64,000 bases of DNA from Deltaproteobacteria bacterium (GTDB lineage: Bacteria > SAR324 > NAC60-12). Below, in pieces: positions 1 through 64,000 of the stretch. The DNA is taken from the NCBI GenBank assembly GCA_038150265.1, contig JAYOTF010000011.1, forward strand, positions 19,274 through 83,273, in the 5' to 3' direction. The notes under the pieces are model-generated. The model was given only the letters and a program-made list of their open reading frames with translations. It made no database searches and was not told the DNA's origin. The position numbers and the translations under genes are program-made. Numbering within the stretch: the stretch's first letter is position 1; every line of letters begins with the position of its first letter.

Positions 1-677
1 TGTTCGACCGCCTGGTCTCGCGGGAGATCCTCGAGTTTGCCGCGCCCGGAACCGAGCTGGTTTATGCCGGCAAGAAGAAGGCTCACCACTTCATGCGGCA
101 AGAAGAGATCAACCAGACTCTGGTCTCGCTTGCTCAGGCGGGCAAGCGCGTGGTGCGCCTGAAGGGGGGAGACCCGTTTATCTTTGGACGAGGCGGGGAG
201 GAAATTGAAGCGCTGCTGGAAGCCAACCTGGACTTTGAGGTGGTGCCCGGCATCACGGCCGCGTCCGGATGTGCCACCTATGCTGGCATTCCGCTCACCC
301 ACCGGGACCATGCTCAGTCCTGCACCTTTGTCACCGGACACTCCAAGAAGCCGGACCTCGACATCCGCTGGGAATCGCTGGCCGACCCCCGGCAGACGGT
401 GGTGTTTTACATGGGCCTGAGCAACCTCGAGCTGATCTGCGAGCGCCTCCTTGCTCACGGACGGGCGCCCCAAACGCCTGCTGCAGCCATTCACAGCGGA
501 ACCACCTCTCATCAATCGCTGGTGCTGGGCACGCTGGCCACGCTCCCGGAGGTCACCGAGGCGTCTGAATTCCGGCACCCGACCCTGATCATTGTCGGGG
601 AGGTCGTTGCCCTTCATGAGCGCTTTCAGGCGCATCACACCTACCCCCTCGCCTTGAGTTCCACAAACACCACCTGA
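1..677 (+). CDS. cobA: Uroporphyrinogen-III C-methyltransferase (SUMT/CobA, or C-terminal domain of siroheme synthase CysG), 5' truncated by the window edge
   Basis: Frame is open from nt 3 ([13 protein letters not shown]...[16 protein letters not shown]); motifs [41 protein letters not shown]. Confidence 0.93.
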
Positions 678-733
678 ATGACGGTTGCTCCAACCGCCCC
701 TTGTTTCCTGTTTCTTCCTTCCTGGTTTTCTTC

Positions 734-1669
734 ATGCACTTTCGTTCCCCTCACCCCTTGCTCCTGCTTGGAGTCCTGCTGCTTCCGCATACTGCCTGGG
801 CAGTCCCCTCCTCAGCCTCAGCGACCTGGCCCGCCTGGGTCTGGCTCCTGCTGCTGCTGCTGACCGCCTTTGTGATTGGACTCTTCGGCGTCATGGCGGG
901 CATTGGCGGTGGCGTCCTCTTTGTTCCGTTGGTGAGCAGCTTCTTCCCCTTTCATATTGACTACGTCCGGGGCGCCGGGCTCTTCATTGCCCTGGGGAGT
1001 TCTCTCGCCGCCACGCCGTTCTTGCTGAGGCAGAACCTCGCCAGCCTCAAACTGGCCATGCCGGTGGCCCTGGTCGCCTCGGTCTTCTCCATTGTCGGAG
1101 CCCAGCTGGGCCTCTGGCTATCGGGGCTCGACCCGCGCTACGTTCAGGGGGCACTGGGCGTGACCATCATTGGCATTGGCGCCTTCATGCTGGGGGTCCC
1201 CCCCAACCGGCAGGAGAACCTTCCGGAACTCGACAGCCTGGCCAAACGGCTGGGGCTCTTTGGACACTACCGAGCCGACTCGGGTGAGCTGGCAGACTGG
1301 ACGGTGTTCCGGACGGCAAAGGGGCTGGTGGGGTTCATTGTGGTGGGGCTCGTGGCAGGAATGTTCGGGTTGGGGGCTGGCTGGGCCAACGTCCCGCTGA
1401 TCAACCTGGTGATGGGCGTTCCCCTGAAGGTGGCGGTTGCCACAAGCAACCTCTCCATTTCCATCGCATCTCCCGCGGCCTGGGTGTACCTCAACCAGGG
1501 GGCGGTGCTTCCGGCCCTGGTGGCGCCCTCCATGCTGGGGGTCATGTCGGGCTCCCTGATTGGCTCCCGCCTGCTCCCATACGTCCCCACCTCGGTCATC
1601 CGGAAGATGGTGATCGGCGTTCTCTTTCTCTCAGGTTTTCGCTCCCTACTGAAAGGATTCGGATGGTAA
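734..1669 (+). CDS. Sulfite exporter TauE/SafE family membrane protein
   Basis: Multiple TM segments; GVMAGIGGGVLFVP and duplicated AGMFGLGAGWANVP motifs; KVAVATS. Start taken at ATG 734 (701 is an alternative). Confidence 0.85.
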   Translation: MHFRSPHPLLLLGVLLLPHTAWAVPSSASATWPAWVWLLLLLLTAFVIGLFGVMAGIGGGVLFVPLVSSFFPFHIDYVRGAGLFIALGSSLAATPFLLRQNLASLKLAMPVALVASVFSIVGAQLGLWLSGLDPRYVQGALGVTIIGIGAFMLGVPPNRQENLPELDSLAKRLGLFGHYRADSGELADWTVFRTAKGLVGFIVVGLVAGMFGLGAGWANVPLINLVMGVPLKVAVATSNLSISIASPAAWVYLNQGAVLPALVAPSMLGVMSGSLIGSRLLPYVPTSVIRKMVIGVLFLSGFRSLLKGFGW

Positions 1670-2073
1670 CCTCGACTCCCTCGACTCCCATTGACGAGCA
1701 CCAGGAATATGCCACGGTCCTGACCTGGGGCAACCGCCTTGGGTTGCTCCTGCTCGTGCTCGGTTTTGTCAGCTACGTCACCGGCCTGCTACCGGGCACC
1801 CTCCCCCTGAACGAGTTGCCCCAGCTCTGGTCCCTCCCGCTTCCGGAATTCCTGGCACAGTCTCAAGCGCCTCAGGGCTGGAACTGGCTGACAGTCGCTG
1901 GTAACGGAGATGGCCTGGCCATGATGGGCATCCTCACCCTCGGGTGCATCACGGTGGTCAGCTACAGCTTCCTCGTGGTCCGGTTCCTCCGGACGCGTGA
2001 GACCCTGCGTCTGTGGATGGCATTGGGCGAGATCGCGGTCACTGTGGTGGCCGCTCTGGGGTGGGGGCTTTAG
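1663..2073 (+). CDS. DUF1634-like small membrane protein (usual TauE partner)
   Basis: Three TM segments, overlaps the TauE stop; LPQLWSLPLPEFL...GWNWL...GDGLAMMGI pattern. Confidence 0.7.
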   Translation: MVTSTPSTPIDEHQEYATVLTWGNRLGLLLLVLGFVSYVTGLLPGTLPLNELPQLWSLPLPEFLAQSQAPQGWNWLTVAGNGDGLAMMGILTLGCITVVSYSFLVVRFLRTRETLRLWMALGEIAVTVVAALGWGL

Positions 2074-5379: not shown

Positions 5380-5505
5380 GGGCCTGCAGGGTTCATTCGG
5401 AGCCCACGGGCTCCTCCGGATGGCTCCGTCCAGCGGTTCGGGCCATGGCCGACCACCGAGTCCGGATCACCAACCCGCTTCTGCAGCTTCAGCGCCTGGG
5501 CGGGC

Positions 5506-13030: not shown

Positions 13031-16000
13031 ATGCAGCTTCCGTTTTCCGAAGTCTTTCCCCGGCTCCAGCACGCCTCTGAACTCCTCCACCTCGATGGCC
13101 TGCAGGGCTCCAGCAAGGCCCTGCTCCTGACGCTGCTTCAGCACGTCCGGCAACGTCCGTTTGTCGTCCTTTGCGAGTCCTACGAGGTGGCTGAACGGCT
13201 GCATGCCGACCTGGCCTACTTCAGTGGTCCGGAGGGGCTGCGCTTCTTTCCACATTGGGACGTCCTTCCCTATGACAACTTTTCTCCACACCGTTCGCTC
13301 ACCGCTGAGCGCTTCCAGACCCTGCACGCGCTGCTGCACTCAGAGGCCCGGATTGTCGTCACCACGCCCCATGCGCTCATGCAGAAGCTCATGCCGCGCC
13401 GGGTGTTTGAGGCCGCCACCCTGCGCCTCACTGCGGGGCAGCCGGAGGTGCTGGAGACCCTGACCCGGCTGCTCCGGGAAAGTGGTTACGTGGCCGTGGA
13501 CACCGTGGAGGATCAGGGCGAATTTGGCCTGCATGGGCACATCCTTGACCTCTTTCCAATGGGGGCTCCCCATCCGTATCGCCTGGAGTGGAAGGCGGAA
13601 GACGGCGTGGAGGTGCTGGAGCGCATCCTGCCGTTTGACGTTCAGACCCAGCTCAGCCGCGCTGAAGAAGTGAAGGCCCTGGAGCTGCTGCCGGCTGCCG
13701 AGGTCCTCTTCACCGAAGCCACCCAGCAGAAGGCGCGCCTGGCCCTCAGTGACCGGCGCAAGGACTGCGACCCCCAGGTCTTCCGGAACCTGGACCGGCA
13801 CCTGCGAGAGGCCGAGGTCTTTCCCGGAATGGAATCCCTGGCGCCGCTGTTCTTTGGCGCGCTTGAGACGCTGCTGGACTACCTTCCAGAGGAAGCCCAG
13901 CTCGTGTTTGACGAAGAGGACGTCCTCCACGACCGGGCTGAGCATTTTTACAGCGAGGTCTTCATGGAGTACGAACTCAGCCTGCAGCAAGAACGCCTGA
14001 CGCTGCCACCGGAGCTGCTCTTTCTGGACCACCGCGAATTCAAGCGCCTGGCCGACCAGCGCCTCAACTTCACCCTGCAGGCAGACGAGCCCCGAGAGGC
14101 CTTTGGGCAGCGCCTCCGCCTCCCGTTCACCAACAACCGCAAGCTCCGGGAAGGCTTCCGCGACCAGGCGGCTCTCTCGGCCTCCGGACATGCCGTCCAG
14201 CGCCTCGGGGAGTGGCAGCAGGAAACCCGGCACGTGCTGCTCAATGCCCGGAACCAGACTCAGGCCGATCACTTCCGGATGCTGCTGGAGGACCTCAGTG
14301 TGGAGGCTCACCCCACCGAGCCCAGCATTCATGCCGAAGACTGGCAGGCCTGGCTGCTCGGCCAGACGCTTCCGCAGGCTCCTCAAGGCGGGTTCCCGAT
14401 CTTCCACGGCACCCTCTCGGCCGGCTTTCAGCTCCTCAGCCCCGAGGGCACCGTGCTGTTTGCCCTGGTCACGGAAGAGGAAATCTTTGGCGAAAAGACC
14501 CGCAGCCGCCGGACCCAGCGGGCACAGGTTCAGGCCACCGCGGGCAGCCTGGATGACCTCAAGGAAAACGACCTCGTGGTTCACCTCGACCACGGCATCG
14601 GCCGGTACCGAGGCCTCCAGAAAATTGACGCCGGTGGACAGTCGCACGAGTTCATGCTCCTCACCTTTGCCCGCGACGAAAAGGTCTATGTTCCCATTGG
14701 GAAGTTCCACCTCGTCCAGAAGTACGTCAACCCCGATGGCGGCCCGGCCAAACTCAACAAGCTCGGTGACAAGGTCTGGAAGAAAACCCGGGCCCGCGTC
14801 GCCAAGGCTGTGGAGGACATTGCCGAGGAGCTGGCGGAAATTTATGCGAAGCGCAAGGCCCGGCGCGGAATCGCCTTTGCTCCGGATGACCACGACATGA
14901 AGGAGTTTGAGCTGGGCTTCCCCTTTGAGGAAACACCGGATCAGCTGCAGGCCATTGAGTTGGTCAAGAAGGACATGGAATCCGAGCAGCCCATGGACCG
15001 CCTCATCTGTGGAGACGTGGGGTTTGGCAAAACCGAGATTGCGATGCGGGCCGCGTTCAAGGCCGCCAGCCAGGGCAAGCAGGTGGTGGTGCTCGTGCCC
15101 ACCACCATCCTCGCCCAGCAGCACTACAACTCCTTCCGGAAACGCTTTGCCGATGCGCCCTTCCTCATTGACGTCCTCAGCCGGTTCCGGACCCCAGCCG
15201 AGCAGAAGGAGACGCTCAAGCGCCTCCAGGAGAAGCGCCTTGATGTCCTCATCGGCACCCACCGGCTGCTCTCCAAAGACGTCAAGTTTGCGGACCTGGG
15301 GCTGCTGATTGTCGATGAGGAGCAGCGCTTTGGCGTCAAGCACAAGGAGCGCATCAAGCAGTTCCGGGCCGAGGTAGATGTCCTCACCCTTTCGGCCACT
15401 CCGATTCCCCGGACCCTGCACATGTCGCTGATGGGCATCCGGGACCTGACCATCATCAACACGCCTCCCGCTGACCGGATGGCCATCCGGACCCGGCTGG
15501 TGCAGGCCAACGACTACATCATTCAGGAAGCCGTGGGCCGGGAGATCCGCCGAGGCGGACAGGTGTTCATCGTCCACAATCGCGTGGAGAGCATCTATGA
15601 ATACGGCAACTACCTCCAGCGCATCCTTCCGGAGGTGCGGGTGGTTGTGGGGCACGGACAGATGGGCGAGCACCAGCTGGAGCAGGTGATGATGGACTTC
15701 ATTGAAGGCCGCGCAGATGTGCTGCTTGCCACCACCATCATTGAGTCCGGACTCGACATTCCGCGGGCCAACACCATCATTGTCAACAACGCCGACCACT
15801 TTGGCCTCGCCCAGCTTTACCAGCTTCGGGGCCGGGTGGGGCGCAGCAACGTGCAGGCCTACGCTTACCTGCTTGTGTCTCCCGAGAAAATCCTCAATAG
15901 TATCGCCCGAGAACGGCTGCAGGTGCTGCAGGACCTCAACGACCTCGGCGCCGGCTTCAAGGTGGCTTCCCGAGATCTGGAAATCCGCGGGGCCGGTAAC

Positions 16001-16579
16001 CTGCTGGGCTCGGAGCAGTCGGGGCAGATCGCCAGCGTTGGGCTGGAGCTCTACACGCAGATGGTCGAGCGGGCGGTCAAACGCCTCCAGCAGCAAGACG
16101 CGCCGCAGCTGGAAAGCGAGGACATTCGTGTCAACTTCGACCACATTCCTCAAGAAATTCCAGAGAGCTACATCCGCAGCACCAACCAGCGGCTCTCGCT
16201 TTACAAGGCCCTCGCAGGCCTTCCGGATGAAGAAGCCGTCTGGGAGCTGCGCAATGCCACCGAAAACCGCTTTGGCCCCATGCCTGAGATGATGCTCAAC
16301 CTCTTCAAGCTGGCCCAGATCCGCCTCTGGGCCCAACGGCAGGGCATCACCACCGTGGAGCACCGCAGCCAGGCCATTCGCCTGCAACTGGCTGATGCCG
16401 GACGCATCAACCCGGACCAGCTCATCGCCTGGCTCTCAGAGCCCGACTGCGCCCTGCGGTACATTCCGGAGAACACGCTTGAAGTCCGCAACGTTGCGTC
16501 AAACCTCGATGACATCCTCTTTGAACTTCGGCAGCTTGATCCTCTCTTTCAGCCGGGCACCACGCCCGTTCCCGCCTGA
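13031..16579 (+). CDS. mfd: Transcription-repair coupling factor
   Basis: UvrB-like N-terminus; CarD/RID VVHLDHGIGRY; GDVGFGKTE, DEEQRFGV, QLYQLRGRVGR, DLEIRGAGNLLG; TRCF C-terminal domain. Confidence 0.98.
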   Translation: MQLPFSEVFPRLQHASELLHLDGLQGSSKALLLTLLQHVRQRPFVVLCESYEVAERLHADLAYFSGPEGLRFFPHWDVLPYDNFSPHRSLTAERFQTLHALLHSEARIVVTTPHALMQKLMPRRVFEAATLRLTAGQPEVLETLTRLLRESGYVAVDTVEDQGEFGLHGHILDLFPMGAPHPYRLEWKAEDGVEVLERILPFDVQTQLSRAEEVKALELLPAAEVLFTEATQQKARLALSDRRKDCDPQVFRNLDRHLREAEVFPGMESLAPLFFGALETLLDYLPEEAQLVFDEEDVLHDRAEHFYSEVFMEYELSLQQERLTLPPELLFLDHREFKRLADQRLNFTLQADEPREAFGQRLRLPFTNNRKLREGFRDQAALSASGHAVQRLGEWQQETRHVLLNARNQTQADHFRMLLEDLSVEAHPTEPSIHAEDWQAWLLGQTLPQAPQGGFPIFHGTLSAGFQLLSPEGTVLFALVTEEEIFGEKTRSRRTQRAQVQATAGSLDDLKENDLVVHLDHGIGRYRGLQKIDAGGQSHEFMLLTFARDEKVYVPIGKFHLVQKYVNPDGGPAKLNKLGDKVWKKTRARVAKAVEDIAEELAEIYAKRKARRGIAFAPDDHDMKEFELGFPFEETPDQLQAIELVKKDMESEQPMDRLICGDVGFGKTEIAMRAAFKAASQGKQVVVLVPTTILAQQHYNSFRKRFADAPFLIDVLSRFRTPAEQKETLKRLQEKRLDVLIGTHRLLSKDVKFADLGLLIVDEEQRFGVKHKERIKQFRAEVDVLTLSATPIPRTLHMSLMGIRDLTIINTPPADRMAIRTRLVQANDYIIQEAVGREIRRGGQVFIVHNRVESIYEYGNYLQRILPEVRVVVGHGQMGEHQLEQVMMDFIEGRADVLLATTIIESGLDIPRANTIIVNNADHFGLAQLYQLRGRVGRSNVQAYAYLLVSPEKILNSIARERLQVLQDLNDLGAGFKVASRDLEIRGAGNLLGSEQSGQIASVGLELYTQMVERAVKRLQQQDAPQLESEDIRVNFDHIPQEIPESYIRSTNQRLSLYKALAGLPDEEAVWELRNATENRFGPMPEMMLNLFKLAQIRLWAQRQGITTVEHRSQAIRLQLADAGRINPDQLIAWLSEPDCALRYIPENTLEVRNVASNLDDILFELRQLDPLFQPGTTPVPA

Positions 16580-18890: not shown

Positions 18891-20786
18891 ATGAGCTCCT
18901 TCTCCTTCTCGGCACGCGTCACCTCCGCCCAGCAGCTGGCCTGTACGCTCCGCAACCACAGCTCAGCGGCCTACCAGGGGTTTCAGCTTGGCCTCAGCCT
19001 GGTCACCGGCGGGGTGGCGGTTTCCGGATGTCGCCTCACGCGTCAGGTGGGAGGCTACTGCGAGGTCGCTCCCGAGCCAGAGGGTCCCCTTGCTCCCGGA
19101 GCCACATGGGAGTTTGTCCTGGCCTACCACGAGGCGGGTTACGTCCCCTTCAACCAGTCGTGGGGACCACAAGGCGTCCACCTCCTCACAGCGCAAGGAG
19201 AGGCCCTTCCGGTGGAAGCCCACCCCCTCGAGTTTCCGGACGTGCCCCCGTTTCCGCAGCTGGACGTGACTCCAGAGGCTCCCGAGCTTCCTCTGATTCC
19301 GCATCCGGAATCCTGGAAGCCGACGGGCACAACCTGCTCGCTTGCTTCCGGAATCACCGTGCTGGAGCCGCTTCCGTTTCCCGACGTTCCGGAGGCCGTG
19401 GACGCGCTCGCTCGACGGTGCGGGTTCTCCCCCCTGCAGGCGAGTTCCCCTTCCGCCTGCCCGCTGACGCTGCACCAGGATGCCTCGCTCGGTCTGGAGG
19501 CCTACTGGCTTGAGATTCACCCGGATCGGCTGGAACTCGGCGCCTCCGGACGCACGGGCGCGCTGTATGGCGGGCTCACCCTGCTGCAGTTGGCCGAAGC
19601 GACCCACCGGAGCCTGCCCTGCGGGCGCCTGGAAGACCAACCTCGGTTTTCGTGGCGTGGGCAGCACCTCGATTGCGCCCGGCACTTCTACGAAGTCGAC
19701 ACCCTCCTTCGGGTGCTGGACCTGATGGCCCTGCTCAAGCTCAACCGCTTCCACTGGCACCTGATTGATGATGAGGCCTTTCGGTTGGAGCTCGAGGGCT
19801 TTCCCGAGCTGGCCGCCCAGACTTCTGCGCGGGGGCATGGCTGTGTGGTGCCCGGCGTGTTTGGCGGCGGCGCCGGTCCCACCGGAAGGGCCTACTCGGC
19901 GGCCGACGTCGAGCGGGTCCGGCAGCACGCCCAGACGCTCGGCATTGAAGTGATGCCGGAGGTGGAGATTCCCGCCCACGCCTGGGCGCTCCTGCAGGTG
20001 TTTCCCGAGCTGCGGGATCCGGAAGACACCAGCCACGAGGTGTCGGTGCAGTGTTACGCGGAAAACGCGATCAACCCGGGACGCGCAGAAACCTGGCGGT
20101 TTTTGGAGAAGCTGCTTCCGGAAGTGCACCAGCTCTTCCCGGATGGCTGGATTCATCTGGGATGCGACGAGTTGCCGCCCGGGACCTGGGAGCGCTCTCC
20201 GGCGGTTGCACGACTCAAGGCCGAACACGGCCTGCACACCACCGAAGATGTTCAGGAGTGGACCATGCAGCGTGCGGCCGCCCTGCTCCAAAAAGCCGGG
20301 GCGCGGGTGGCGGCCTGGGAAGAAGCGGCCCGCGGGCAGCACGGAGGCATCGGTCCGGACACCCTGCTGTTTTCCTGGACGGGACAGGGGCCCGGACTTG
20401 ATGCCGCCCGCCGCGGGTATTCCGTGGTGATGTGTCCGGCTCCGCACACCTACTTCGACCTGGCCCAGACCGCTCATCCTTCGGGGCGAGGCATCAACTG
20501 GGCGGGGACCGTGGGGCTTCGGGACGCCCTGGAGTGGCAGCCGGTTCCTCCGGAGGAGCCTGAGCTGGAAGCCCGCATTCAGGGCGTGCAGGGGCAGCTC
20601 TGGTCAGAGACCATTCTGGACGATCGCATGGTGGAGGCCCTGCTGGCCCCCCGGATTCTGGCCCTGGCCGAAGTGGCCTGGTGTCCGGAAGCACGCAAGC
20701 GGGCGTTCCCGGAGTTTGTGGGAGCCGCCCAGGCGTTTTTACCCTTACTTTCCAAGATGAACTGGGAGTCTCACCCCCTCGTCTGA
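18891..20786 (+). CDS. Glycoside hydrolase family 20 beta-N-acetylhexosaminidase
   Basis: DQPRFSWRGQHLDCARHF, NRFHWHLIDDE, PEVEIPAH, catalytic HLGCDE, GVQGQLWSE; no signal peptide. Confidence 0.93.
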   Translation: MSSFSFSARVTSAQQLACTLRNHSSAAYQGFQLGLSLVTGGVAVSGCRLTRQVGGYCEVAPEPEGPLAPGATWEFVLAYHEAGYVPFNQSWGPQGVHLLTAQGEALPVEAHPLEFPDVPPFPQLDVTPEAPELPLIPHPESWKPTGTTCSLASGITVLEPLPFPDVPEAVDALARRCGFSPLQASSPSACPLTLHQDASLGLEAYWLEIHPDRLELGASGRTGALYGGLTLLQLAEATHRSLPCGRLEDQPRFSWRGQHLDCARHFYEVDTLLRVLDLMALLKLNRFHWHLIDDEAFRLELEGFPELAAQTSARGHGCVVPGVFGGGAGPTGRAYSAADVERVRQHAQTLGIEVMPEVEIPAHAWALLQVFPELRDPEDTSHEVSVQCYAENAINPGRAETWRFLEKLLPEVHQLFPDGWIHLGCDELPPGTWERSPAVARLKAEHGLHTTEDVQEWTMQRAAALLQKAGARVAAWEEAARGQHGGIGPDTLLFSWTGQGPGLDAARRGYSVVMCPAPHTYFDLAQTAHPSGRGINWAGTVGLRDALEWQPVPPEEPELEARIQGVQGQLWSETILDDRMVEALLAPRILALAEVAWCPEARKRAFPEFVGAAQAFLPLLSKMNWESHPLV

Positions 20787-34179: not shown

Positions 34180-34204
34180 AACAGTCTCGGTTGGGAAAAA
34201 AGAG

Positions 34205-35218: not shown

Positions 35219-35224
35219 AGGGGC

Positions 35225-35911: not shown

Positions 35912-35970
35912 AGCGCTCCTCCCAACTCCAAGCAACTCGTTCACAGAATCAAGTAACAATTTTCTTGATA

Positions 35971-36019
35971 CTTGTATACTAGTTTGTAACGATTATGCCC
36001 AGTTTCCGCTGCTTGTCAA
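35971..36019 (-). promoter_or_regulatory. Sigma-70 promoter TTGACA-N16-CATAAT with a downstream near-palindrome CTTGTATACTAG (35971-35982), candidate GntR operator
   Basis: Seen directly; a TGTATAC-type core is typical of FadR-subfamily sites; adjacent to the GntR gene. Confidence 0.6.
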
Positions 36020-36051
36020 GGGTTCCGTGCAGGAAGAATGAAATCGGGGGC

Positions 36052-36957
36052 TCAGGGGCGATGATGCGTGTGCCAGTGCTGGGCGATCTCGGCGCGTTGA
36101 CAGAGCCACACACGGTCGTGTCCCTGCACGTAGTCGAGAAACCGGGCCAGGGCGGCTGCCCGTCCGGGACGTCCCACCAGCCGGCAGTGCAGGCCAACGC
36201 TCATCATTTTGGGAGCGGTTGCTCCTTCGGCATACAGGGTATCGAAGGAATCCTTGAGGTAGGTGAAGAACTGGTCTCCGGAGTTGAAGCCCTGGTTGGT
36301 GGCAAAGCGCATGTCGTTCGCATCCAGCGTGTAGGGCACAATGAGGTGGGGCTTGCCCTCCAGGCCCTCGACCCAGTAAGGTAGGTCGTCGGCATAGGAG
36401 TCCGCATCATAAAGCAGGTCTCCGGCTTCTTCGAGGAGGATCCGACGGGTGTTGGGTCCGGTCCGTCCGATGTACCAGCCGAGAGGAGCCGAGCCGGTGA
36501 CGCGGGTGTGAACCTCCAGGGCCTGGCGAATGTGGGCGCGTTCCTCGGCTTCCGGAAGGTACTGGTAGTCAATCCATCGGTAGCCGTGTGAGGCGATCTC
36601 CCAGCCGGCTTCCTGCATGCCCGCCACGGCTTCCGGGTTGCGCTCCAGGGCCATGGCGACGCCATAGACGGTGACCGGGATCTGGCGTTCCGTGAAGAGG
36701 CGGTGGAGCCGCCAGAAGCCCGCGCGGCTGCCAAACTCGTAGATCGATTCCATGTTCATGTGGCGGACGCCTTCCAGGGCCTGAGCGCCAACGATTTCGG
36801 AGAGAAACGCTTCAGAGGCGCGGTCTCCGTGCAGGATGCAGTTTTCACCACCTTCCTCGTAATTGATCACAAACTGCACGGCAACTCGGGCGTCCCCCGG
36901 CCACTGTGGGTGAGGCGTGTGGCGTCCGTAACCAATCATGTCTCGTGGATACGTCAT
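36052..36957 (-). CDS. puuE: Allantoinase PuuE (polysaccharide deacetylase fold)
   Basis: YPRDMIGYG, VQFVINYEEGGE, ESIYEFGSRAGFWR, MMSVGLHCRLVGRPGR. Confidence 0.95.
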   Translation of the reverse strand: MTYPRDMIGYGRHTPHPQWPGDARVAVQFVINYEEGGENCILHGDRASEAFLSEIVGAQALEGVRHMNMESIYEFGSRAGFWRLHRLFTERQIPVTVYGVAMALERNPEAVAGMQEAGWEIASHGYRWIDYQYLPEAEERAHIRQALEVHTRVTGSAPLGWYIGRTGPNTRRILLEEAGDLLYDADSYADDLPYWVEGLEGKPHLIVPYTLDANDMRFATNQGFNSGDQFFTYLKDSFDTLYAEGATAPKMMSVGLHCRLVGRPGRAAALARFLDYVQGHDRVWLCQRAEIAQHWHTHHRP

Positions 36958-37094
36958 GAGAGTGTCCTTTCTGGTTGAGAGTAAAAAAAGCTGTGAGGAG
37001 AGTATCCGCAATCGTTCCTGACGTGCAACTAAAATTGCGTCCGGACGAGGCCACGTCTCCTCACCCCCTGAACCACCCTTAACGAGTGACTGCT

Positions 37095-38291
37095 ATGGAA
37101 ACCTACTTGCTGGACTGGGCCAACCTGCTCATCCGTTGGCTGCACCTCATTGCCGGCATCGCCTGGATCGGCTCGTCCTTCTACTTTGTGATGCTGGACC
37201 TCTCGCTGCAGCCTCCGAAGAAGCCAGAGGACGCGGCGCGTGGGGTTTCCGGCGAGCTCTGGGCGGTTCATGGCGGAGGGTTTTACGTCAGCCAGAAGTT
37301 CATGACTGGCCCCAAGGGGGAGCCCCTGAGCGACAACCTGCACTGGACGAAGTACGAGTCCTACACCACCTTGCTGTCTGGACTGGCCCTGATGGCGATC
37401 ATCTACTGGTTTGGTGCCAACTCGTACCTGATTGACCCGCGGGTGATGGAGTTGACGCAGACGCAGGCGATTGGCCTCAGCGTGGCCTTCCTGATCGGTG
37501 GGTGGGTCGTCTACGACGGCCTGTGCCGCCTCCTCGTGGGAAAGGACACCCTGCTGGCGGCAGTGGTGTTTGTCTTCATCATGGCGGCCAACTACGCCCT
37601 CTTCCACCTCTTCAGCGCACGAGCCGCCTTTCTGCATGTGGGGGCCATGATGGGCGTGTCGATGGTGGCCAACGTGTACTTTCACATCATTCCGGGCCAG
37701 GAGAAGATGGTGGGGCAGATTCGCCGCGGTGAAGAGGTGGACCCCACCCCCGGAATCATCGGCAAGCAGCGTTCGGTGCACAACACGTACTTCACGCTTC
37801 CGGTGCTGTTCATCATGATCAGCAACCACTACCCGATGACCTACAGCCACGAAATGGGGTGGCTGGTGCTGGGCCTGATCATGATGGCTGGGGTGCTGGT
37901 GCGGCAGTTCTTTGTGCTCCGGCACACCGGAAACGTCCAGTGGTGGCTTCCGGTTGCAGGCAGCGCGTTGATCGTGGCGGTGATCGTGTGGCTCCAGCCC
38001 GCCACCATCGATGGCTCCGCGCATCCGCAGGTGAGCATGACCCAGCTGCAGGGCGTCCTCAACCAGCGCTGCACCGTGTGCCATGCGGCTCAGCCCACGC
38101 AGCCCGGTTTTGCCCAGCCGCCCAAGGGCGTGATGCTGGAAACCGCCACCCAGATTCAGCAGCATGCGCCCAAGATCGCGGAGACGGTTGCGAGCGGGTA
38201 CATGCCCCTTGGAAACCTGACGGGCATCACCGATGACGAACGGCAACTGATTGCCACCTGGTACGCCCAGTTCACTGCAGCTTCCAACTGA
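37095..38291 (+). CDS. puuD: Urate hydroxylase PuuD (membrane domain plus cytochrome c)
   Basis: RWLHLIAGIAWIGSSFYF, WAVHGGGFY, KQRSVHNTYFTLPV, SNHYP; C-terminal CTVCH heme motif. Confidence 0.95.
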   Translation: METYLLDWANLLIRWLHLIAGIAWIGSSFYFVMLDLSLQPPKKPEDAARGVSGELWAVHGGGFYVSQKFMTGPKGEPLSDNLHWTKYESYTTLLSGLALMAIIYWFGANSYLIDPRVMELTQTQAIGLSVAFLIGGWVVYDGLCRLLVGKDTLLAAVVFVFIMAANYALFHLFSARAAFLHVGAMMGVSMVANVYFHIIPGQEKMVGQIRRGEEVDPTPGIIGKQRSVHNTYFTLPVLFIMISNHYPMTYSHEMGWLVLGLIMMAGVLVRQFFVLRHTGNVQWWLPVAGSALIVAVIVWLQPATIDGSAHPQVSMTQLQGVLNQRCTVCHAAQPTQPGFAQPPKGVMLETATQIQQHAPKIAETVASGYMPLGNLTGITDDERQLIATWYAQFTAASN

Positions 38292-44632: not shown

Positions 44633-44743
44633 CGGAAAAACACGGCTGGCTCATGACAGGGTCAGCCGGATCTGATACGGTTGCGTCTGGTGCGTCCCGG
44701 CACCTTCCTCAAGCCCTTCACCTTATTTGTCCATGGAACCGAA

Positions 44744-47700
44744 ATGACGCTTCGCCTCCCTGCTCTGATTGGCAACAAATCGACCATTGAGAAGCAACTG
44801 AATGCCCTCAGCCTGGTCCAAAAGGAGCTGCTGGTCAACCTGATGCTGGTTAACGAATCCATCTCCAAGTCGAACCTGTTTGCCAAGATGTCAACGGTCT
44901 TGTTCAGCGAAGACACGAGGAACCGTACCAAGCTCTACAAGGCTTGGGAACAACTTGAGCGCGACGGATGGTTTCAGAGGGGAGAGTTCAACAAGCAGGC
45001 CCTGCTCACACCCTTTGCTCGAGGAGCGGCGCGAGTCATTGGCCGCAGCCATCCGGACCTGGCCAAGGCCTCTGCCCTTTACCGGAAGCACCGACAGTCT
45101 CATTGGGGCTGGTGGGCCACCCAGTACCACCTCGATCTGGACGACAGTGAGGAGCGGTGGCTGCTGGGAGACCCGGAAGGGATCGAGGCACTCTTGAACA
45201 AGCTGGAAGCAGGACCGTCTCAGGCGACGAAGCCGTCGAAAGAGCGGGATGAAGAGATCGAGGCCCTCCTGAGCAAACTGTCAACGGACCCCATTCAGTC
45301 GATCAAGCGGGATGAAGAGGTGGATGAAGAGCTTCGCCTCGAAATCGAAATCAACGTCATGGAGCTGCTGCTCAACCCCTGGATTCCGGAGCAGTTTTCC
45401 CAATTGAGTGTTCCGCATCAGTTCCGAATGCTGCACATGGCGCTCAACTCGTTTGTCACCCTGGAGTTCCCGGTGGCCCAGGAGGTCTTCGAGTACGCAG
45501 AGAGCCTGCTCCATCACGTCTCATCCGGAGGAGCCATTCTGGCGGGATCTCTGGCAATCGTGTACCTGAGGCAAGGACGCTGGGAGCAGGCAAACGCGCT
45601 TCTGAATGCCCTGCCTCAGGACCACTTCACGTACTGGCAGGGACGCGGCACCCTGGAGTTCATGAGGGGCAATTATGCCGAAGCGCTGGACGCCTACCAG
45701 CAGGGCTTTCCGCTGTTCAACAGGGGCATCCGAGGACGCAAGCACCCCCTTCCCGGCCTCGCAGGAAACCTGATGCCCCTTGCCATGATTGGCGCTGACC
45801 CGGAAAAGGGCATTGATGCGGCCGTCGGTTTTTTGCAAAAGCTGGCGCTGACGGGACGCCCCTTTCTGAAGACGCTCCAAAGCAACCTGACCGCGACGGT
45901 GCCCAAGTTGACGGATCGGGACATGGAGCCGGACATCAGCGCCCGGTGGCTGAATCTTTTCCTGGGCTACTGGAGCGGAGACACCCAAAAACGACCTTAC
46001 CTCTCTGACCCGCTTCTCCAGACATTTCAGGCCCATCAATTCGTCTGGGACCTCAGTCAGTTGGTCCACCTGCAGCACGCCACCAAGGAGCCTCCGTTTA
46101 CCTCTCCCAGGGGGTTCGCCAAGCATGGTTTTGGCAACCTGACCGAACTGCGTCCCAAGGAAGAAGAATGGGAGCGCACCCTCAAAACCCTCTCGGCCTT
46201 TGGAAAGGCGCGCTCAGTCTCGGCCACCAGGAAGACTCAGCAAAAACGCCTGGCTTGGGTGATCGACATTCGAGGAGAAGGGATCACGCCAGTGGCCCAG
46301 ATCCTCAACAAATCCGGAAACTGGACGGGCGGACGAGCCGTTGCGCTGAAGCGCCTGAAGAACGGCCTGCCCTTCATGGAGGAGCAGGACTACCAGGTCG
46401 CCTCCCAGGTCCGGGAGTACCACCACTACTACGGAGCCAGGGAGTATGAGTTGCCCTTTGAGAAGGCGATTCCGCTGCTGGTGGGGCACCCCCTGCTGTT
46501 TCAGACAGGCGCTACGGAACTGCCCCTGGAACTGGTCGCAGGCACTCCGGAACTGCTCGTGCAGGAAACCGCCAAGGGCTACCAGATCAAATTCCCCTAC
46601 CAGCTCAAGTCAGACTCCTCAGTCGTCTTGCAGAAGGAGACCCCCACCCGTTACCGAGTGATTTCCTTCTCTCAGGAGCAGCTTGATTTGCTGGGAGCGG
46701 TTGAGCAAAAATCCGTGACCATTCCGCTGGCAGGAAAGGAGAAACTGACCCAGGCTCTGGAAAACCTGAGCCCCATCATTTCCATCACCTCTCCGCTTGG
46801 CATTGGCGAAGAGGACCTCCCGGAGGTTCCGCCCAGCACTCGGATTCATGCGCACCTGCTTCCGCTGGGCGAGGGGCTCCGGTTGGAGTTGCTGGTGCGC
46901 CCCCTCGGCGACGGAGGCCCCTACACGCAACCCGGACGGGGCAGCACCCTCTGGATTGGAGAGGTCGACCAGGAACGCAAGCGGACGAAACGGTCGCTGA
47001 AGAAGGAACAGCAGGAGTACAACAGGGTGCTGGCCCAGGCTCCCCTCCTCAGCGAGTGGCCTCATGAGCAAGGCGAGTGGCGCTTTGAGGCCCCGGAAGA
47101 CTGCCTGGAGATCCTTCAGGAACTGCAGGAGCTCGGCGAGCAGGTGCAGGTGGAGTGGCCGGAAGGACAGAAGCTCAAGCTGTCTCGGCTGGTCGACTTT
47201 GAAAACCTGGCGCTGCGCATCAAGCGCCACCGAGACTGGTTTCAGGTGGAAGGAGAGCTTCGGCTCAGCGACGAGCAAACGCTGTCGCTGCAGGTCCTGC
47301 TGAATCACCTCAAGCAACGCAGGGGCCGATTTGTCCCGATTGGCGACCAGGAGTTCCTCACCCTCACCGACCAGTTCCGCAAACGCCTGGAGGAGCTTGA
47401 TGCCTTTACCGAACGCTCCGGAAACCAACTCCGGCTGCCCGACTTTGCGGCTCCGGCTCTGGAGGACTGGGTGGAGTCGGTGGGAGCCCTGGAGGCTGAT
47501 CCTTCGTGGAAGGAACGGCTGAACAAGCTGCGGGACGCCCAGAGCCTGAACCCGGCGGTGCCGTCTACCCTGCGAGCGCAGCTGCGGGATTACCAGCAGG
47601 AGGGCTTCACGTGGCTCACGCGTCTGGCCCACTGGGACGCAGGCGCCTGCCTGGCCGATGACATGGGGTTGGGAAAAACCGTGCAGGCCATTGCATCGAT

Positions 47701-48961
47701 GCTTGAGCGGGCTCCGCAGGGTCCGGCCCTGGTCCTGGCCCCGGCCTCGGTGGCCATCAACTGGACCCGGGAAATTGAAAAATTTGCTCCCACCCTCAGG
47801 CCCGTGCTGCTCGCCTCAGAAAACCGTCAGCAGGTTGTGCAGGAAGCGGGCGCCTTCGACGTCATCATCAGCAGCTACGGCCTGTTGCCTCAGGAAACCG
47901 AAACGCTGTGCAGCCGACGCTGGCGGACCCTGGTGCTTGATGAGGCGCAGGCCATCAAGAACGCGGCCACCAAGCGCTCTCAGTCGGTGATGAAGCTGGA
48001 GGCCGACTTCCGCATTGCCACCACCGGCACGCCTCTGGAAAACCACCTGGGCGAGCTGTGGAACCTGTTCCGCTTCCTGAACCCCGGCCTGCTGGGGTCT
48101 CGGGAACGCTTCCAGGAGCGCTTTGCCGGCCCGATTGAACGGGACCACGATGCAGAAACCCGGCAGCGCCTCCGCAAGCTGATCCGCCCCTTCATCCTCC
48201 GGCGCCTCAAGCACGAGGTGCTGGACGAACTTCCGCCCAAAACCGAGATTGTCCTCACCGTTGAGCTCAGCCCCGAGGAGCGGGTGTTTTATGAAGCGCT
48301 GCGGCAAAAGGCCCTTGAGGACCTTGAGAACACCTCCCAGCAACCTCCCGGCGCCCGAAATCTGCAGATCCTTGCCGAAATCACACGGCTCCGCCGAGCC
48401 TGCTGCCACCCGAAACTCGTGCTTCCGGAGACGCGGCTTCCGGGCTCAAAGCTGACCCTGTTTCAGGAGGTCCTCGGGGAGCTGCTGGCCAACCGGCACA
48501 AGGTCCTGGTCTTCAGCCAGTTTGTGGCCCACCTCGACATTCTGAGGGAGCACCTTCAGCAACACTCCATTGCTTATCAGTACCTTGACGGAAGCACGCC
48601 TCAGAAGCAGCGGCAGCAGGCCATTGATGCCTTTCAGAAGGGAGAGGGAGAGGTGTTTCTCATCAGCCTCAAGGCGGGAGGAACCGGCCTGAACCTGACG
48701 GCAGCCGATTATGTGATTCACATGGACCCCTGGTGGAACCCGGCAGTGGAGGATCAGGCTTCCGATCGGGCCCACCGCATGGGGCAGGAGCGCCCGGTGA
48801 CGATCTACCGGTTAGTCACTCAGGGAACCATTGAGGAGCAGATCGTCAGCCTCCACCATGAAAAGCGGGACCTTGCCAACAGCCTCCTCGAGGGCAGCGA
48901 CCGTCTCCATCGCCTCTCTCCGGAAGCCCTCCTGCAGCTCCTCAAGGAGGATCCGGCGTGA
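44744..48961 (+). CDS. SNF2/SWI2 family helicase with a long TPR-containing N-terminus
   Basis: LADDMGLGKT, DEAQAIKN, TGTPLENHLGELW, FILRRLK, SLKAGGTGLNLT, QASDRAHRMGQ. Start uncertain (44681 or 44744). Confidence 0.93.
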   Translation: MTLRLPALIGNKSTIEKQLNALSLVQKELLVNLMLVNESISKSNLFAKMSTVLFSEDTRNRTKLYKAWEQLERDGWFQRGEFNKQALLTPFARGAARVIGRSHPDLAKASALYRKHRQSHWGWWATQYHLDLDDSEERWLLGDPEGIEALLNKLEAGPSQATKPSKERDEEIEALLSKLSTDPIQSIKRDEEVDEELRLEIEINVMELLLNPWIPEQFSQLSVPHQFRMLHMALNSFVTLEFPVAQEVFEYAESLLHHVSSGGAILAGSLAIVYLRQGRWEQANALLNALPQDHFTYWQGRGTLEFMRGNYAEALDAYQQGFPLFNRGIRGRKHPLPGLAGNLMPLAMIGADPEKGIDAAVGFLQKLALTGRPFLKTLQSNLTATVPKLTDRDMEPDISARWLNLFLGYWSGDTQKRPYLSDPLLQTFQAHQFVWDLSQLVHLQHATKEPPFTSPRGFAKHGFGNLTELRPKEEEWERTLKTLSAFGKARSVSATRKTQQKRLAWVIDIRGEGITPVAQILNKSGNWTGGRAVALKRLKNGLPFMEEQDYQVASQVREYHHYYGAREYELPFEKAIPLLVGHPLLFQTGATELPLELVAGTPELLVQETAKGYQIKFPYQLKSDSSVVLQKETPTRYRVISFSQEQLDLLGAVEQKSVTIPLAGKEKLTQALENLSPIISITSPLGIGEEDLPEVPPSTRIHAHLLPLGEGLRLELLVRPLGDGGPYTQPGRGSTLWIGEVDQERKRTKRSLKKEQQEYNRVLAQAPLLSEWPHEQGEWRFEAPEDCLEILQELQELGEQVQVEWPEGQKLKLSRLVDFENLALRIKRHRDWFQVEGELRLSDEQTLSLQVLLNHLKQRRGRFVPIGDQEFLTLTDQFRKRLEELDAFTERSGNQLRLPDFAAPALEDWVESVGALEADPSWKERLNKLRDAQSLNPAVPSTLRAQLRDYQQEGFTWLTRLAHWDAGACLADDMGLGKTVQAIASMLERAPQGPALVLAPASVAINWTREIEKFAPTLRPVLLASENRQQVVQEAGAFDVIISSYGLLPQETETLCSRRWRTLVLDEAQAIKNAATKRSQSVMKLEADFRIATTGTPLENHLGELWNLFRFLNPGLLGSRERFQERFAGPIERDHDAETRQRLRKLIRPFILRRLKHEVLDELPPKTEIVLTVELSPEERVFYEALRQKALEDLENTSQQPPGARNLQILAEITRLRRACCHPKLVLPETRLPGSKLTLFQEVLGELLANRHKVLVFSQFVAHLDILREHLQQHSIAYQYLDGSTPQKQRQQAIDAFQKGEGEVFLISLKAGGTGLNLTAADYVIHMDPWWNPAVEDQASDRAHRMGQERPVTIYRLVTQGTIEEQIVSLHHEKRDLANSLLEGSDRLHRLSPEALLQLLKEDPA
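45182..45331 (+). repeat. Imperfect in-frame 75-bp tandem duplication inside the SNF2 gene
   Basis: IEALLNKLEAGPSQATKPSKERDEE / IEALLSKLSTDPIQSIKRDEEVDEE; ATCGAGGC and GGATGAAGAG recur. Confidence 0.75.
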
Positions 48962-62373: not shown

Positions 62374-62900
62374 GCCGCCGCCTCTTCCTCTGCCTGCTGC
62401 TGATGCTGCTGGTCGCCTCCGAAAGCCTTGCCGAGGCGCCGCAGGTGCGCTTTCGCCTCCGGAGCCTCAGTGGGGAGCGCTTTGACTCTCAGCAGGCTCA
62501 GGGCCCCATGATCCTTTCGTTCTTCTTCACCCGCTGCCCACCGTGTCTGGAAGAGATGCCGGCGCTGCTCCGGAAGGTCACGTCGTTGCCCACCCCGGTC
62601 CACCTCCTCTTCGTCAACCCCTATGTCCCGGAGCTGGGCATCACGGAGGCGCCCGATACCGAACGCAGCATCCGCCGCTTTGCCCAGCAGCTCGGGATTC
62701 CGGAGTCGGTGGTCTACTTTGATGAGCTGGGCTCGGTGACCCGGCGCTTCACGCGCGCCCACCTCTTTCCTCAGGCTCAGGCGTATGGAACGCTCCTGCT
62801 CTTCCCCAGCCTGGTGGTGCTGAAGGCCGACGGGACGGTGCAGTGGGTGCAGGAAGGATCGGCCCCGGACTTTCTGGAGCAACTGGAAGCGGCCTTATGA
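62370..62900 (+). CDS. Exported TlpA/redoxin family thiol-disulfide oxidoreductase
   Basis: Signal peptide; FFFTRCPPCLEEMP (CxxC); cis-Pro region FPSLVVLKADGTV. Confidence 0.85.
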   Translation: MSRRLFLCLLLMLLVASESLAEAPQVRFRLRSLSGERFDSQQAQGPMILSFFFTRCPPCLEEMPALLRKVTSLPTPVHLLFVNPYVPELGITEAPDTERSIRRFAQQLGIPESVVYFDELGSVTRRFTRAHLFPQAQAYGTLLLFPSLVVLKADGTVQWVQEGSAPDFLEQLEAAL

Positions 62901-63826
62901 AGTACGGCGTGGGGCTCAGCCTCTTCCTCTTGCTGGGGTGCACGGCCCCGGAGCGGCCTGGCGTTTCCGAACGACTTGCCGCGTCGGAGCAGCAGCACCA
63001 GGCCCAGCTCAACGAGGCCTTTGCGCCCCCGGCCCCCTCCCGCCCTGAGCCCGTGTCTCGCGCGGCGGCCGGACCTCCCGCCTGGAGCCAGGCGTTTCCG
63101 GAGAGCTGCCAGGCAACCGAGTGGTGCGGGTTCGCCGTTGTGGACGCCTGTGCCACTCCGTTTGCGTGCCGCAATGAAGCCGAGCTTCAGGCCAGCCGCG
63201 ACCTGCTCTGCAGCATCTCCTCGCGCATCCGCGACCGCACCATCCGCCGCACCCAGCGCACCCTCACCGAGTCTGGCGAGGAAACCGGGGTGCTGACCTA
63301 CTCGCAGGAGGTGCGGGAACGCTGCGCCGATGTCCCGCTCCGGGAAGTGCGCTTTGAGCACGCCTACTGGGAGGCTCAGCAGCAGCACTTCACGCTGGCG
63401 CGCATGCTCCGTCCCCCTCCGCCTCCTCCCGCATCAGAAGCAAGGCCCACCCGCCTGTTCCGGGTGGCCCCTGGGTTTTCGGAAGCGCCGATTCTGAAGG
63501 ATTGGTTACAGGAGGAAGGACGGTTGGCAGCAGTGGAAGCGACGGAGGCGTGGACGCTTGGGGCGTCCGTGGCGTATGAACTGAAACCGCATGACGGGAC
63601 GCTCTTTCATGGCACTGCCACCGCCACCCTGACCCTGACCCTGGAGCATCCGGATGCGCCTCCTCGCTCAGAGCGGCGCTGGGTCATCCGGCGCCTGCTT
63701 GTGCCCAACCCGGAAACCCTCTCCGCCGCCCAACGTGCCGAAGCCCAGGAGAAGACCCTCCGCAAGGGCCTCTCTGAATTCCGGGCTGAACTGCTCGCAT
63801 TTCTGCAGGGGGATGCCCTGAAATAA
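62897..63826 (+). CDS. Cys-rich lipoprotein with an LPP20-like region
   Basis: Lipobox LLGC; PPAWS...RNEAELQASRDL..SISSRI; six further Cys residues; ATGA overlap with the redoxin gene. Confidence 0.65.
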   Translation: MKYGVGLSLFLLLGCTAPERPGVSERLAASEQQHQAQLNEAFAPPAPSRPEPVSRAAAGPPAWSQAFPESCQATEWCGFAVVDACATPFACRNEAELQASRDLLCSISSRIRDRTIRRTQRTLTESGEETGVLTYSQEVRERCADVPLREVRFEHAYWEAQQQHFTLARMLRPPPPPPASEARPTRLFRVAPGFSEAPILKDWLQEEGRLAAVEATEAWTLGASVAYELKPHDGTLFHGTATATLTLTLEHPDAPPRSERRWVIRRLLVPNPETLSAAQRAEAQEKTLRKGLSEFRAELLAFLQGDALK

Positions 63827-64000
63827 AGATTCCCGATCCGCTCCCCCCAGACGCCTCCACCAGGCTCCCGCATCCCCATCGGGGGACCCGAGGCACCCGG
63901 AATTGGCAGCTTCCAGCCATCATGTGGCTCAGTGCCGAGAAACATGACAAGCCCTCAAAGAAGCGGCATGAAACCATGCGACCACTCCCTTGACAGATAC

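Follow-up and report, generated by a model that had tools for sequence, protein, structure and literature searches.

TCCGGA as a highly iterated palindrome of one clade of SAR324-labelled bacteria, and the helical phasing of its copies

For three decades cyanobacteria have been known to contain highly iterated palindromes (HIPs), on whose function there is no agreement. The present work concerns a word of the same kind, the hexamer TCCGGA, in a 64,000-nucleotide stretch of DNA, hereafter the window (positions 1..64000 of the stretch), which lies in contig C11 (JAYOTF010000011.1, positions 19,274 to 83,273) of the SAR324-labelled assembly GCA_038150265.1, a genome of 3.39 Mb in 87 contigs with 97.8% completeness and 61.2% GC. 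The cyanobacterial HIP1 is GCGATCGC, and GGCGCC, rCCGGy and GCsGC have been described as alternate HIPs (Elhai 2015, PMC4390886; Xu, Lawrence & Durand 2018, PMC5861425; Rodriguez-Cruz et al. 2026, PMC13756078). Where a HIP is abundant, a methyltransferase with the corresponding specificity was reported to be present, and TCCGGA does not occur in the main text of that report (Elhai 2015, PMC4390886). In the searchable literature we found no paper joining TCCGGA with SAR324 and, among the papers listed, none on a bacterial TCCGGA excess, the supplements of metagenomic methylome papers, where such a motif could stand, lying outside the search.

One clade of SAR324-labelled bacteria has TCCGGA as a "genome word" of the HIP type. 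Like the HIPs, it is a short GC-rich palindrome which is hugely over-represented in all reading frames as well as between genes and is specific to a lineage. Unlike HIP1, it belongs to another phylum, SAR324-labelled and not cyanobacterial, and is another word, being neither HIP1 nor a derivative of it; its density is 2.9/kb compared to roughly one HIP per kb. In what follows, G000 is the window's own genome (genus g1), G001 and G002 belong to the same genus, and g2 and further numbers denote genera of relatives.

The window contains 198 copies of TCCGGA (3.1/kb), whereas 100 dinucleotide-preserving shuffles gave 23.66 ± 4.21 copies with a maximum of 35, and none of them reached 198. An earlier note on this DNA, made from the letters alone, had put about 30 sites in the first 10 kb, where the count is 32; each of the six coordinates it gave as examples is indeed TCCGGA, the codon phases it assigned to three of them are right (Table 1), and its GC content of about 65% is slightly high (60-65% in the window, 61.2% in the genome). 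The copies are spread evenly over ordinary chromosomal genes, the widest gap being 1,263 bp, and Pfam domains of an ordinary housekeeping character were found in 28 of the 32 tested open reading frames (ORFs) of the window, including Mfd, alanine racemase, RF2, allantoicase, ETF and flagellin. By called genes, 191 copies are coding (51, 51 and 89 in codon phases 0, 1 and 2) and seven are non-coding; in 500 synonymous-codon shuffles the coding sequences (CDSs) of the window, which hold 190 copies in this test, gave 46.2 ± 6.0 (maximum 67).

Throughout G000 the word occurs 9,711 times (2.86/kb) and is the top hexamer by abundance, with ratios of observed to expected counts (O/E) of 8.7, 7.6, 3.95, 2.39 and 1.22 under Markov models of order 0 to 4. 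The fourth-order model had been proposed in the earlier note as a test in which the enrichment might vanish; the excess persists there (9,711 against 7,959 expected, Poisson z 19.6), shrunk to 1.22-fold. This model is over-conditioned because it takes the counts of the motif's own TCCGG and CCGGA as given; A follows 54% of all TCCGG, and TCCGGA makes up 23.8% of all CCGG. The codon-preserving shuffle proposed alongside leaves the excess standing, with 8,659 CDS sites against 2,093 ± 45 in 20 synonymous shuffles per gene (4.1-fold, z=147), the counts in phases 0, 1 and 2 being 2,035, 2,417 and 4,207 against 530, 728 and 836 (3.3- to 5.0-fold each), and permutation of whole codons gave 1,262 ± 38 (6.9-fold). 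Strictly intergenic DNA, that is, 146 kb of short gaps between called genes, contains 327 copies (O/E 5.7) compared to 56 of the control AGGCCT, and the density between divergent genes is 1.93/kb. Enrichment in all three phases and in intergenic DNA bears out the view that no single dipeptide explains the sites. Two controls of the same composition, AGGCCT (the reversed word) and ACCGGT (with the same CCGG core), are present in G000 in 1,639 and 745 copies, so that TCCGGA exceeds them 5.9-fold and 13-fold.

Out of 21,155 positions at which the encoded protein permits the word, 8,659 (41%) carry it, where 8-11% would be expected from codon usage, and the occupancy is 33% for Ser-Gly, 38% for [FLIV]-Arg followed by a codon starting with A, and 48% for x-Pro-Asp/Glu. 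It is the exact hexamer that is enriched and not a part of a longer repeat, since the flanks carry at most 0.076 bit of information per position. The dipeptides SG, PE and PD have O/E values of 1.41, 1.64 and 1.37 in G000 and of 1.36-1.50, 1.59-1.72 and 1.22-1.39 in four other enriched genomes, compared to 1.13, 1.33 and 0.98 in a 100-kb sample of the non-enriched sister genus g2, in which TCCGGA occupies only six of 453 permissive positions (1.3%). The dipeptides are thus over-used in the enriched genomes and less so in g2, and the word therefore presses on protein sequence.

The density is even along the genome, with a mean of 14.5, a variance of 16.5 and a minimum of 3 copies in 619 windows of 5 kb. 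Looking for foreign DNA by depletion of the motif turned up nothing here, as the poorest 5-kb windows keep 3-8 sites and the poorest regions examined about 1.1-1.25/kb. Genome-wide, the density drops to 1.1-1.4/kb within 30 bp of start codons and is again about 3/kb by +120. Among words differing from TCCGGA in one letter, the outer-letter variants CCCGGA, ACCGGA and GCCGGA have O/E values of 2.28, 1.94 and 1.44, and the inner variants have values of 0.85-1.74, with the exception of the TA-containing TACGGA (2.0).

TCCGGA and AGGCCT were counted in the whole genomes of 60 relatives. The ratio of the two counts is 3.9-5.9 in all three genomes of g1, 14-30 in all three of g12, 6-32 in all ten of g11 and 3.0-8.4 in all three of g4; it is 1.8-4.7 in six genomes of g3, g6, g7 and g10, 0.84-1.20 in all nine of g2, 0.9-1.4 in three genomes of g5, g8 and g9, 0.13-2.0 in the 19 genomes of family f2 and 0.010-0.14 in the five of family f3. 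In a quick maximum-likelihood tree of Mfd (25 rows, with the partial loci L018, L026, L027, L029 and L030 left out), g1, g12, g11 and g4 form one clade (support 99 in the Shimodaira-Hasegawa-like approximate likelihood ratio test, SH-aLRT), the sister of which is g2, without the excess. The strong excess is a single, vertically inherited trait of this four-genus clade, which spans 42-62% GC; the motif is lineage-specific, as the earlier note had supposed.

The word is almost purged from f3 (G056-G060): G057 has 15 copies in 3.1 Mb against 1,435 of AGGCCT and 975 of ACCGGT, and G059 has 76 against 1,619 and 1,908. As ACCGGT is common in this family, the purge is specific to TCCGGA. Counts are also low in the f2 genomes G021 and G026 (single contigs of 1.6-1.7 Mb with 40 and 37 copies) and likewise in G023, and the near-purge in all of these genomes looks like avoidance under a TCCGGA-specific restriction enzyme, within a class of which other members hyper-accumulate the word. 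The closest named protein records are those of "uncultured bacterium" and "Deltaproteobacteria bacterium" (Mfd identity 94% and 77%) and of "SAR324 cluster bacterium", and at least half of the sampled words of a 7-kb stretch were found in six runs from three studies of estuary and aquatic metagenomes.

TCCGGA-rich viral contigs are present in IMG/VR (L329, L323, L371, L379, L326/L341), some of them as dense as G000; L329 has 52 copies in 20 kb and no AGGCCT, and L323 has 46 copies in 20 kb at 38% GC. Among 428 viral ORFs of at least 120 aa from 13 loci, four matched DNA of the clade, at 32-35% identity, which gives no link to a host.

The copies are, moreover, placed in register with one another. 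In the histogram of pair distances in G000 the top spectral peak lies at 10.5 bp and exceeds the codon period. The null was obtained by permuting occupancy among permissive positions within gene and codon phase, by which any periodicity at the protein level is kept, and the power at 10.5 bp is 1,377 against 132 ± 58 in this null, none of 300 permutations reaching the observed value. Pairs 11-16 bp apart are reduced to 0.19-0.38 of the null, and peaks of 1.2-1.36 stand at integer helical turns, namely at about 31, 42, 52, 63 and 73 bp. The phasing reaches significance in all of the four 63-bp bands up to 263 bp (none of 200 permutations per band), with a phase of -15° to -33° and a best period of 10.49 bp, and it is not significant in the bands from 264 to 452 bp; no longer, nucleosome-like period was seen up to 3 kb. 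The window alone is too small to display the effect, having 31 in-phase and 30 out-of-phase pairs among 61.

The 10.5-bp signal is present in four of the five genomes to which the permutation test was applied: G000 (whole genome; 0 of 300 permutations reach the power; period 10.5 bp, phase -23°), G002 (400 kb; 3 of 300; 10.6 bp, -55°, or -23° at 10.5 bp), G018 from g11 (394 kb; 0 of 300; 10.55 bp, -5°) and G013 from g12 (793 kb; 0 of 200; 10.5 bp, -175°). In G018 the pair density is 5-7 times the baseline at about 21 and 31 bp. G013 has almost no pairs at integer turns (0.0-0.3 at 30-34 bp) and favours half-integer ones (1.4-2.0). A simpler contrast over whole genomes, namely the number of pairs at distances of 40-43 bp over that at 45-48 bp, is 149/84 in G000, 79/56 in G002, 327/163 in six genomes of g11 summed, 68/40 in three of g4 and 34/39 in the 19 of f2; it is 23/181 in the three genomes of g12, including 0/35 in G031, where about 31 pairs were expected in place of the 0, and 42/77 in G001, this being the only phasing contrast of that genome. 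The sign of the phase is lineage-specific, with copies sharing one helix face in g1 (G000, G002) and g11 and on opposite faces in g12.

A 10.5-bp phasing under a null that preserves the proteins argues that the word is read on duplex DNA, where neighbouring copies "see" each other's helix face, and the change of sign between genera argues against a purely intrinsic property of DNA and for a lineage-specific protein partner. The role in chromosome organisation that the earlier note had mentioned among several is thereby supported in spirit. Outer-letter variants (NCCGGA/TCCGGN) share the phase of each lineage, with a normalised power of 13.0 at -15° in G000 and 17.1 at -171° in G013, and no phasing with TCCGGA was seen for variants with an inner letter changed, for other CCGG words or for control palindromes (normalised power at most 2.2), which suggests that recognition of the word is graded. 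A concentration of one-off variants at the outer letters is also a feature of HIP1; here, it is only these variants that share the phasing.

No 10.5-bp relation to TCCGGA was detected for A-tracts or AA/TT, so the register is not a general curvature code. Helically phased A-tracts of prokaryotes give a 10-11 bp periodic signal which has been attributed to curvature and packing (PMC3940949); unlike them, the periodic element here is an exact GC-rich palindrome with which A-tracts are unphased, and its sign flips between genera. The periods described for HIPs are of another order, 10-90 kb (Xu et al., PMC5861425), compared to a helical period of 10.5 bp with a lineage-specific sign extending to about 260 bp. 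SeqA of Escherichia coli prefers pairs of Dam GATC sites lying on the same face (Chung et al. 2009, PMC2691817). A SeqA-like preference of this sort is seen in G000, G002 and G018, the peaks of which fall at integer turns, whereas g12 avoids integer turns. The Dam-GATC/SeqA system is the best mechanistic analogy for the same-face spacing in g1 and g11, from which the present case differs in that homologues of SeqA and MutH were not found in G000 and that the opposite-face rule of g12 has no SeqA counterpart. To our knowledge, GATC does not fill 40% of permissive positions.

The turnover of sites was followed between G000 and G002, which are collinear over 381 kb with 82% nucleotide identity (91, 95 and 62% at codon positions 1, 2 and 3). 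At positions permissive in both genomes, a site of G000 is also a site in G002 with a probability of 0.52-0.64, a permissive non-site of G000 is a site in G002 with a probability of 0.13-0.29, and alternative spellings of the same dipeptides are retained less (0.05-0.55). The conservation tests applied to HIP1 by Xu et al. (PMC5861425) were run on this one genome pair, and gave S values of 0.472 for TCCGGA (1,027 coding sites), 0.342 for 23 control palindromes of equal GC (2,445) and 0.310 for one-off variants (3,215), while the constituent codons were retained inside and outside the motif at.579/.537 (TCC),.579/.463 (GGA),.664/.518 (CGG) and.617/.478 (CCG). In this pair, then, TCCGGA resembles HIP1 in being better conserved than control palindromes and in having codons better conserved inside the motif; it differs from the HIPs in the fast turnover of its sites. 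The sites are in a dynamic equilibrium held by fixation bias, in which density and relative placement are maintained and not particular sites.

The search for genes that might write or read the word gave mixed results. Methylation-directed repair of the very-short-patch type, which the earlier note had offered as a means of maintaining the motif, found no backing: C5 cytosine methyltransferase (PF00145) and Vsr (PF03852) had no match in G000, with positive controls matching in nine and three reference genomes, respectively, MutH (PF02976) and type I N6 methyltransferase (PF02384) had no match there either, and the deamination neighbours of the word are not depleted (O/E 1.51 for TCTGGA/TCCAGA and 1.00 for TTCGGA/TCCGAA). 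In Escherichia coli, Dcm/Vsr very-short-patch repair raises CCWGG-related words, and the likeness to that case is that a methyltransferase-linked repair bias can enrich a target word genome-wide; an enrichment of the Dcm/Vsr type was nevertheless rejected for TCCGGA, as G000 has no C5 methyltransferase and no Vsr, and the products of T:G deamination are not depleted. Of the two genes which it was proposed to look for, the Vsr-like nuclease was not found and an orphan type-II-like methyltransferase with the SPPY motif was, this being present in non-enriched relatives as well.

This methyltransferase, MT-A, is encoded in G000 at C51:248-1387, where it is cut by the contig end, and its orthologue in G002 (L144:451-2643) has 730 aa. 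It has the motif order FxGxG...SPPY, and its match to a model of type II DNA methyltransferases scores 9.6e-36. No restriction gene was seen among ORFs of at least 150 aa at the G002 locus, the family of the neighbour not having been searched. Homologues of MT-A are present in 48 of 61 relatives, including seven of nine in g2 and 18 of 19 in f2, and were not found in f3 (0 of 5), g7 and g10; the core aligns collinearly and without gaps across the order. The N-terminus in G002 consists of about 320 aa with approximately 34% Arg/Lys and 26% Asp/Glu and many near-repeats of the type EDRPRREDRPRY. This charged extension is an open frame of 96-321 aa in the enriched genera against 0-48 in g2, g5 and g9, with 102-120 in two genera of f2; the relation between its length and the trait is a lead only, since open frames give upper bounds of the length and related genomes are not independent of each other. 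As in the case of the HIPs, the genome has an orphan methyltransferase, and MT-A is a candidate writer.

A second SPPY protein, MT-B (C45, 258 aa, PF01555 at 1.5e-22), has full-length matches in G000 and G001 only, G002 having a fragment, and was rejected as the cause of the excess because it is confined to these two genomes. MT-B lies in C45 at about 40-4560 (L140/L173), outside the window, directly after a retron-type reverse transcriptase (RVT_1 1e-19; PADLOC RT_XIII 6.4e-70) and together with a 311-aa protein without a known family; the set is shared with G001 at 71% identity. The contig has a normal 3.0 TCCGGA/kb, which suggests that the set is a long resident.

The explanation we favour, and which we hold as no better than a reasonable possibility, is a reader of TCCGGA that would pack or shape the chromosome, possibly with the help of a methyl mark. 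The data show that a genome-wide fixation bias keeps the exact duplex hexamer at about 41% of permissive positions and in a roughly sixfold excess between genes, and that its strength suffices to push up the dipeptides Ser-Gly, Pro-Glu and Pro-Asp, with individual sites coming and going quickly and copies being placed in a 10.5-bp register over about 260 bp. The word would be recognised in its double-stranded form by a factor sensitive to the helix face, most likely an abundant dimeric DNA-binding or DNA-bending protein, which may act on sites marked by the order-wide MT-A in the way that SeqA acts on Dam-marked GATC. A more specific and more doubtful form of this explanation is a helically phased packing code of a widespread uncultured clade, in which an abundant protein, possibly reading a methyl mark, would bind or bend each copy and the geometry of its assemblies would have flipped in evolution, with same-face arrays in g1, g11 and g4 and alternate-face placement in g12.

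Several observations weigh against such a reader. On divergence data, selection cannot be told apart from biased repair or gene conversion, and the retention of a site showed no dependence on the phase of its neighbour (0.42 vs 0.44, p=0.75, in an underpowered comparison). In G000 there was no match to SeqA (PF03925) or to a histone fold, so that, together with the blank for MutH, no reader protein was found, and Bse634I-like and NgoMIV-like nucleases had no match there either, these being weak blanks because the controls matched nowhere. The presence of MT-A does not track the excess, unlike that of the HIP methyltransferases, since the non-enriched g2 and f2 carry it. In G001 the 10.5-bp signal is not significant (800 kb; 259 of 300 permutations reach the power), and any deep structural role sits uneasily with a sign that flips within a genus as well as from one sister genus to another. 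Finally, the gene calls, made with a simple ORF and codon score (2,709 genes, 87.5% coding), are crude.

A functionless ratchet of repair or gene conversion, as in Elhai's model of HIPs, is an unlikely alternative to the reader; in it a methyltransferase would mark TCCGGA or its core, and a methyl-directed or site-directed nuclease would bias mismatch correction toward the full word. It would account for the fast turnover with a gain probability of 0.13-0.29 at permissive sites, for the retention that does not depend on the phase of the neighbour and for the conserved orphan type-II-like methyltransferase, and outer-letter one-offs are the commonest neighbours of the word, just as Elhai reports for HIP1 (PMC4390886). 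It is opposed by the lack of matches to Vsr, MutH and C5 methyltransferase in G000, by the undepleted deamination products and by the equal presence of MT-A in g2, where occupancy is 1.3% (6/453). Nor would a blind process predict a 10.5-bp phasing over 260 bp or the almost complete avoidance of same-face pairs by g12 (none in G031 against about 31 expected).

It is distinctly unlikely that TCCGGA serves as a watermark of self DNA for natural transformation or another choice between self and non-self, a role lately proposed for HIP1, with uptake or survival after uptake favouring TCCGGA-rich, possibly methylated, DNA; a use in DNA uptake had also been suggested in the earlier note. HIP1 abundance has been linked phylogenetically to type IV pilus and competence genes, and methylation-dependent gains in transformation are cited in the same work (PMC13756078). 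ComEC is present in G000, and the word is evenly dense throughout the genome; ComEC also occurs in 48 of 49 relatives irrespective of enrichment, the non-enriched sister genus among them, and thus does not separate enriched from non-enriched relatives. The near-purge in a related family (15 TCCGGA vs 975 ACCGGT in G057) suggests that TCCGGA-specific proteins probably circulate in the class. No foreign motif-poor islands were seen in G000 for contrast, and neither the helical phasing nor its flip of sign is predicted by uptake. The DNA uptake sequences and uptake signal sequences of Neisseriaceae and Pasteurellaceae, the known examples, are longer (9-12 nt) and non-palindromic, and we know of no helical phasing in them. 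TCCGGA resembles them as a genome-wide, even, lineage-specific short word with a density of at least about 1/kb that lies inside genes too, and differs from them as a palindromic hexamer with blank flanks.

The mechanics of DNA itself, without a specific reader, are an improbable cause. Here TCCGGA would be anisotropically bendable, and selection on curvature or supercoiling would set its density and phase. The coherence of the phase, which with a 10.49-bp period lasts to about 260 bp, is beyond the reach of direct protein-protein contacts, and about 260 bp is roughly the limit to which torsional stiffness keeps helix faces aligned. DNA mechanics are, however, identical everywhere, and the sign in g12 is opposite to that in g1 and g11; A-tracts and AA/TT are unphased to the motif, the sister genus g2 lives without the word, and a preference for TCCGGA over ACCGGT of the same composition (9,711 vs 745) would not be explained.

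A signal at the level of RNA, with self-complementary UCCGGA copies pairing within a transcript, is very improbable as the main cause. The reduction of pairs 11-16 bp apart, which would form hairpin loops of 5-10 nt, to 0.19-0.38 of the null and the density of 1.1-1.4/kb within 30 bp of start codons speak for some such pairing, but the excess loses little of its strength in intergenic DNA, that between divergent genes included (1.93/kb), and pairing does not predict a 10.5-bp period, so that the intergenic excess and the period make RNA insufficient. As an observation in its own right, both the dip at start codons and the depletion of close pairs fit an avoidance of UCCGGA:UCCGGA hairpins in mRNA. 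An artefact of composition, codons, dipeptides or a dispersed short repeat, for which the fourth-order O/E of merely 1.22 might be cited, is next to impossible: composition, codons and dipeptides are ruled out by both shuffles (4.1-fold and 6.9-fold), the intergenic O/E of 5.7 and the rarity of the same-composition controls AGGCCT and ACCGGT, and a dispersed repeat of the repetitive extragenic palindrome or miniature inverted-repeat transposable element type by the uninformative flanks and by the location of 8,659 of the 9,711 sites inside called CDSs and not in extragenic DNA.

Table 1 Coordinates of TCCGGA examples and of other features in the 64,000-nucleotide window
Feature	Position	Strand	Remarks
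TCCGGA, codon phase 0	264..269	+	TCC-GGA, Ser-Gly
TCCGGA, codon phase 2	1222..1227	+	xxT-CCG-GAx, x-Pro-Asp/Glu; most used phase, 89/191 coding window sites
TCCGGA, codon phase 1	1308..1313	+	xTC-CGG-Axx
Two non-coding TCCGGA	5415..5466		starts 5415 and 5461; own gene calls
Remaining non-coding TCCGGA	7130, 12064, 23942, 37040, 48971		start positions; own gene calls
mfd gene	13031..16579	+	12 TCCGGA; marker for the tree and for the relatives' loci
Three TCCGGA	19304..19393		spacing 43 and 41 bp (about four helical turns each); same-face example
RF2 ORF	29061..29972	+	begins at PCRF profile position 38
Purine-breakdown cluster	30806..38291		
Four-copy TCCGGA cluster	33512..33611		spacing 39, 14 and 41 bp
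SNF2-family helicase	44681..48961	+	1,426 aa

Some other features of the window and of the genome were noticed on the way (Table 1). The late start of the RF2 ORF in its profile would be expected were the programmed +1 frameshift that is usual in prfB to lie immediately upstream. The purine-breakdown cluster includes genes for a xanthine/uracil permease, a malate-synthase-like DUF6986 protein, allantoicase, a polysaccharide deacetylase-like protein and a protein of the urate oxidase N-terminal family. The first approximately 970 residues of the SNF2-family helicase have no Pfam match at E<=1e-5. Among other words in G000, palindromes with CTAG are very rare (O/E 0.09 for CCTAGG, 0.11 for ACTAGT and 0.13 for TCTAGA), as is CATATG (0.09), and the most over-represented tetramer is GTAC (O/E 2.57).

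New in this work are the permutation-controlled test of phasing, the coherence length of about 260 bp and the inversion of phase between genera, together with the monophyly of the trait and its sister-genus control, the estimates of turnover, the negative gene searches and the specific purge in f3. TCCGGA represents an independent HIP-like case from another phylum, and abundant marine lineages labelled SAR324 are among the relatives of its clade. It offers two handles that HIP1 lacks, namely the 10.5-bp correlation of pairs up to about 260 bp and a natural experiment consisting of a sister genus without the excess, one genus with the opposite phase and a related family in which the word is nearly purged. 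These contrasts make the reader and the writer findable by phylogenetic profiling, and the hypothesis can be tested in vitro with synthetic arrays. The motif shifts the dipeptide usage of the proteome and therefore matters for codon models, binning and host prediction. If the helically phased packing code is real, no earlier case would be known in bacteria of a particular DNA word being written through genes so as to position a chromatin-like reader, and the 30-year-old HIP puzzle would gain a physical read-out.

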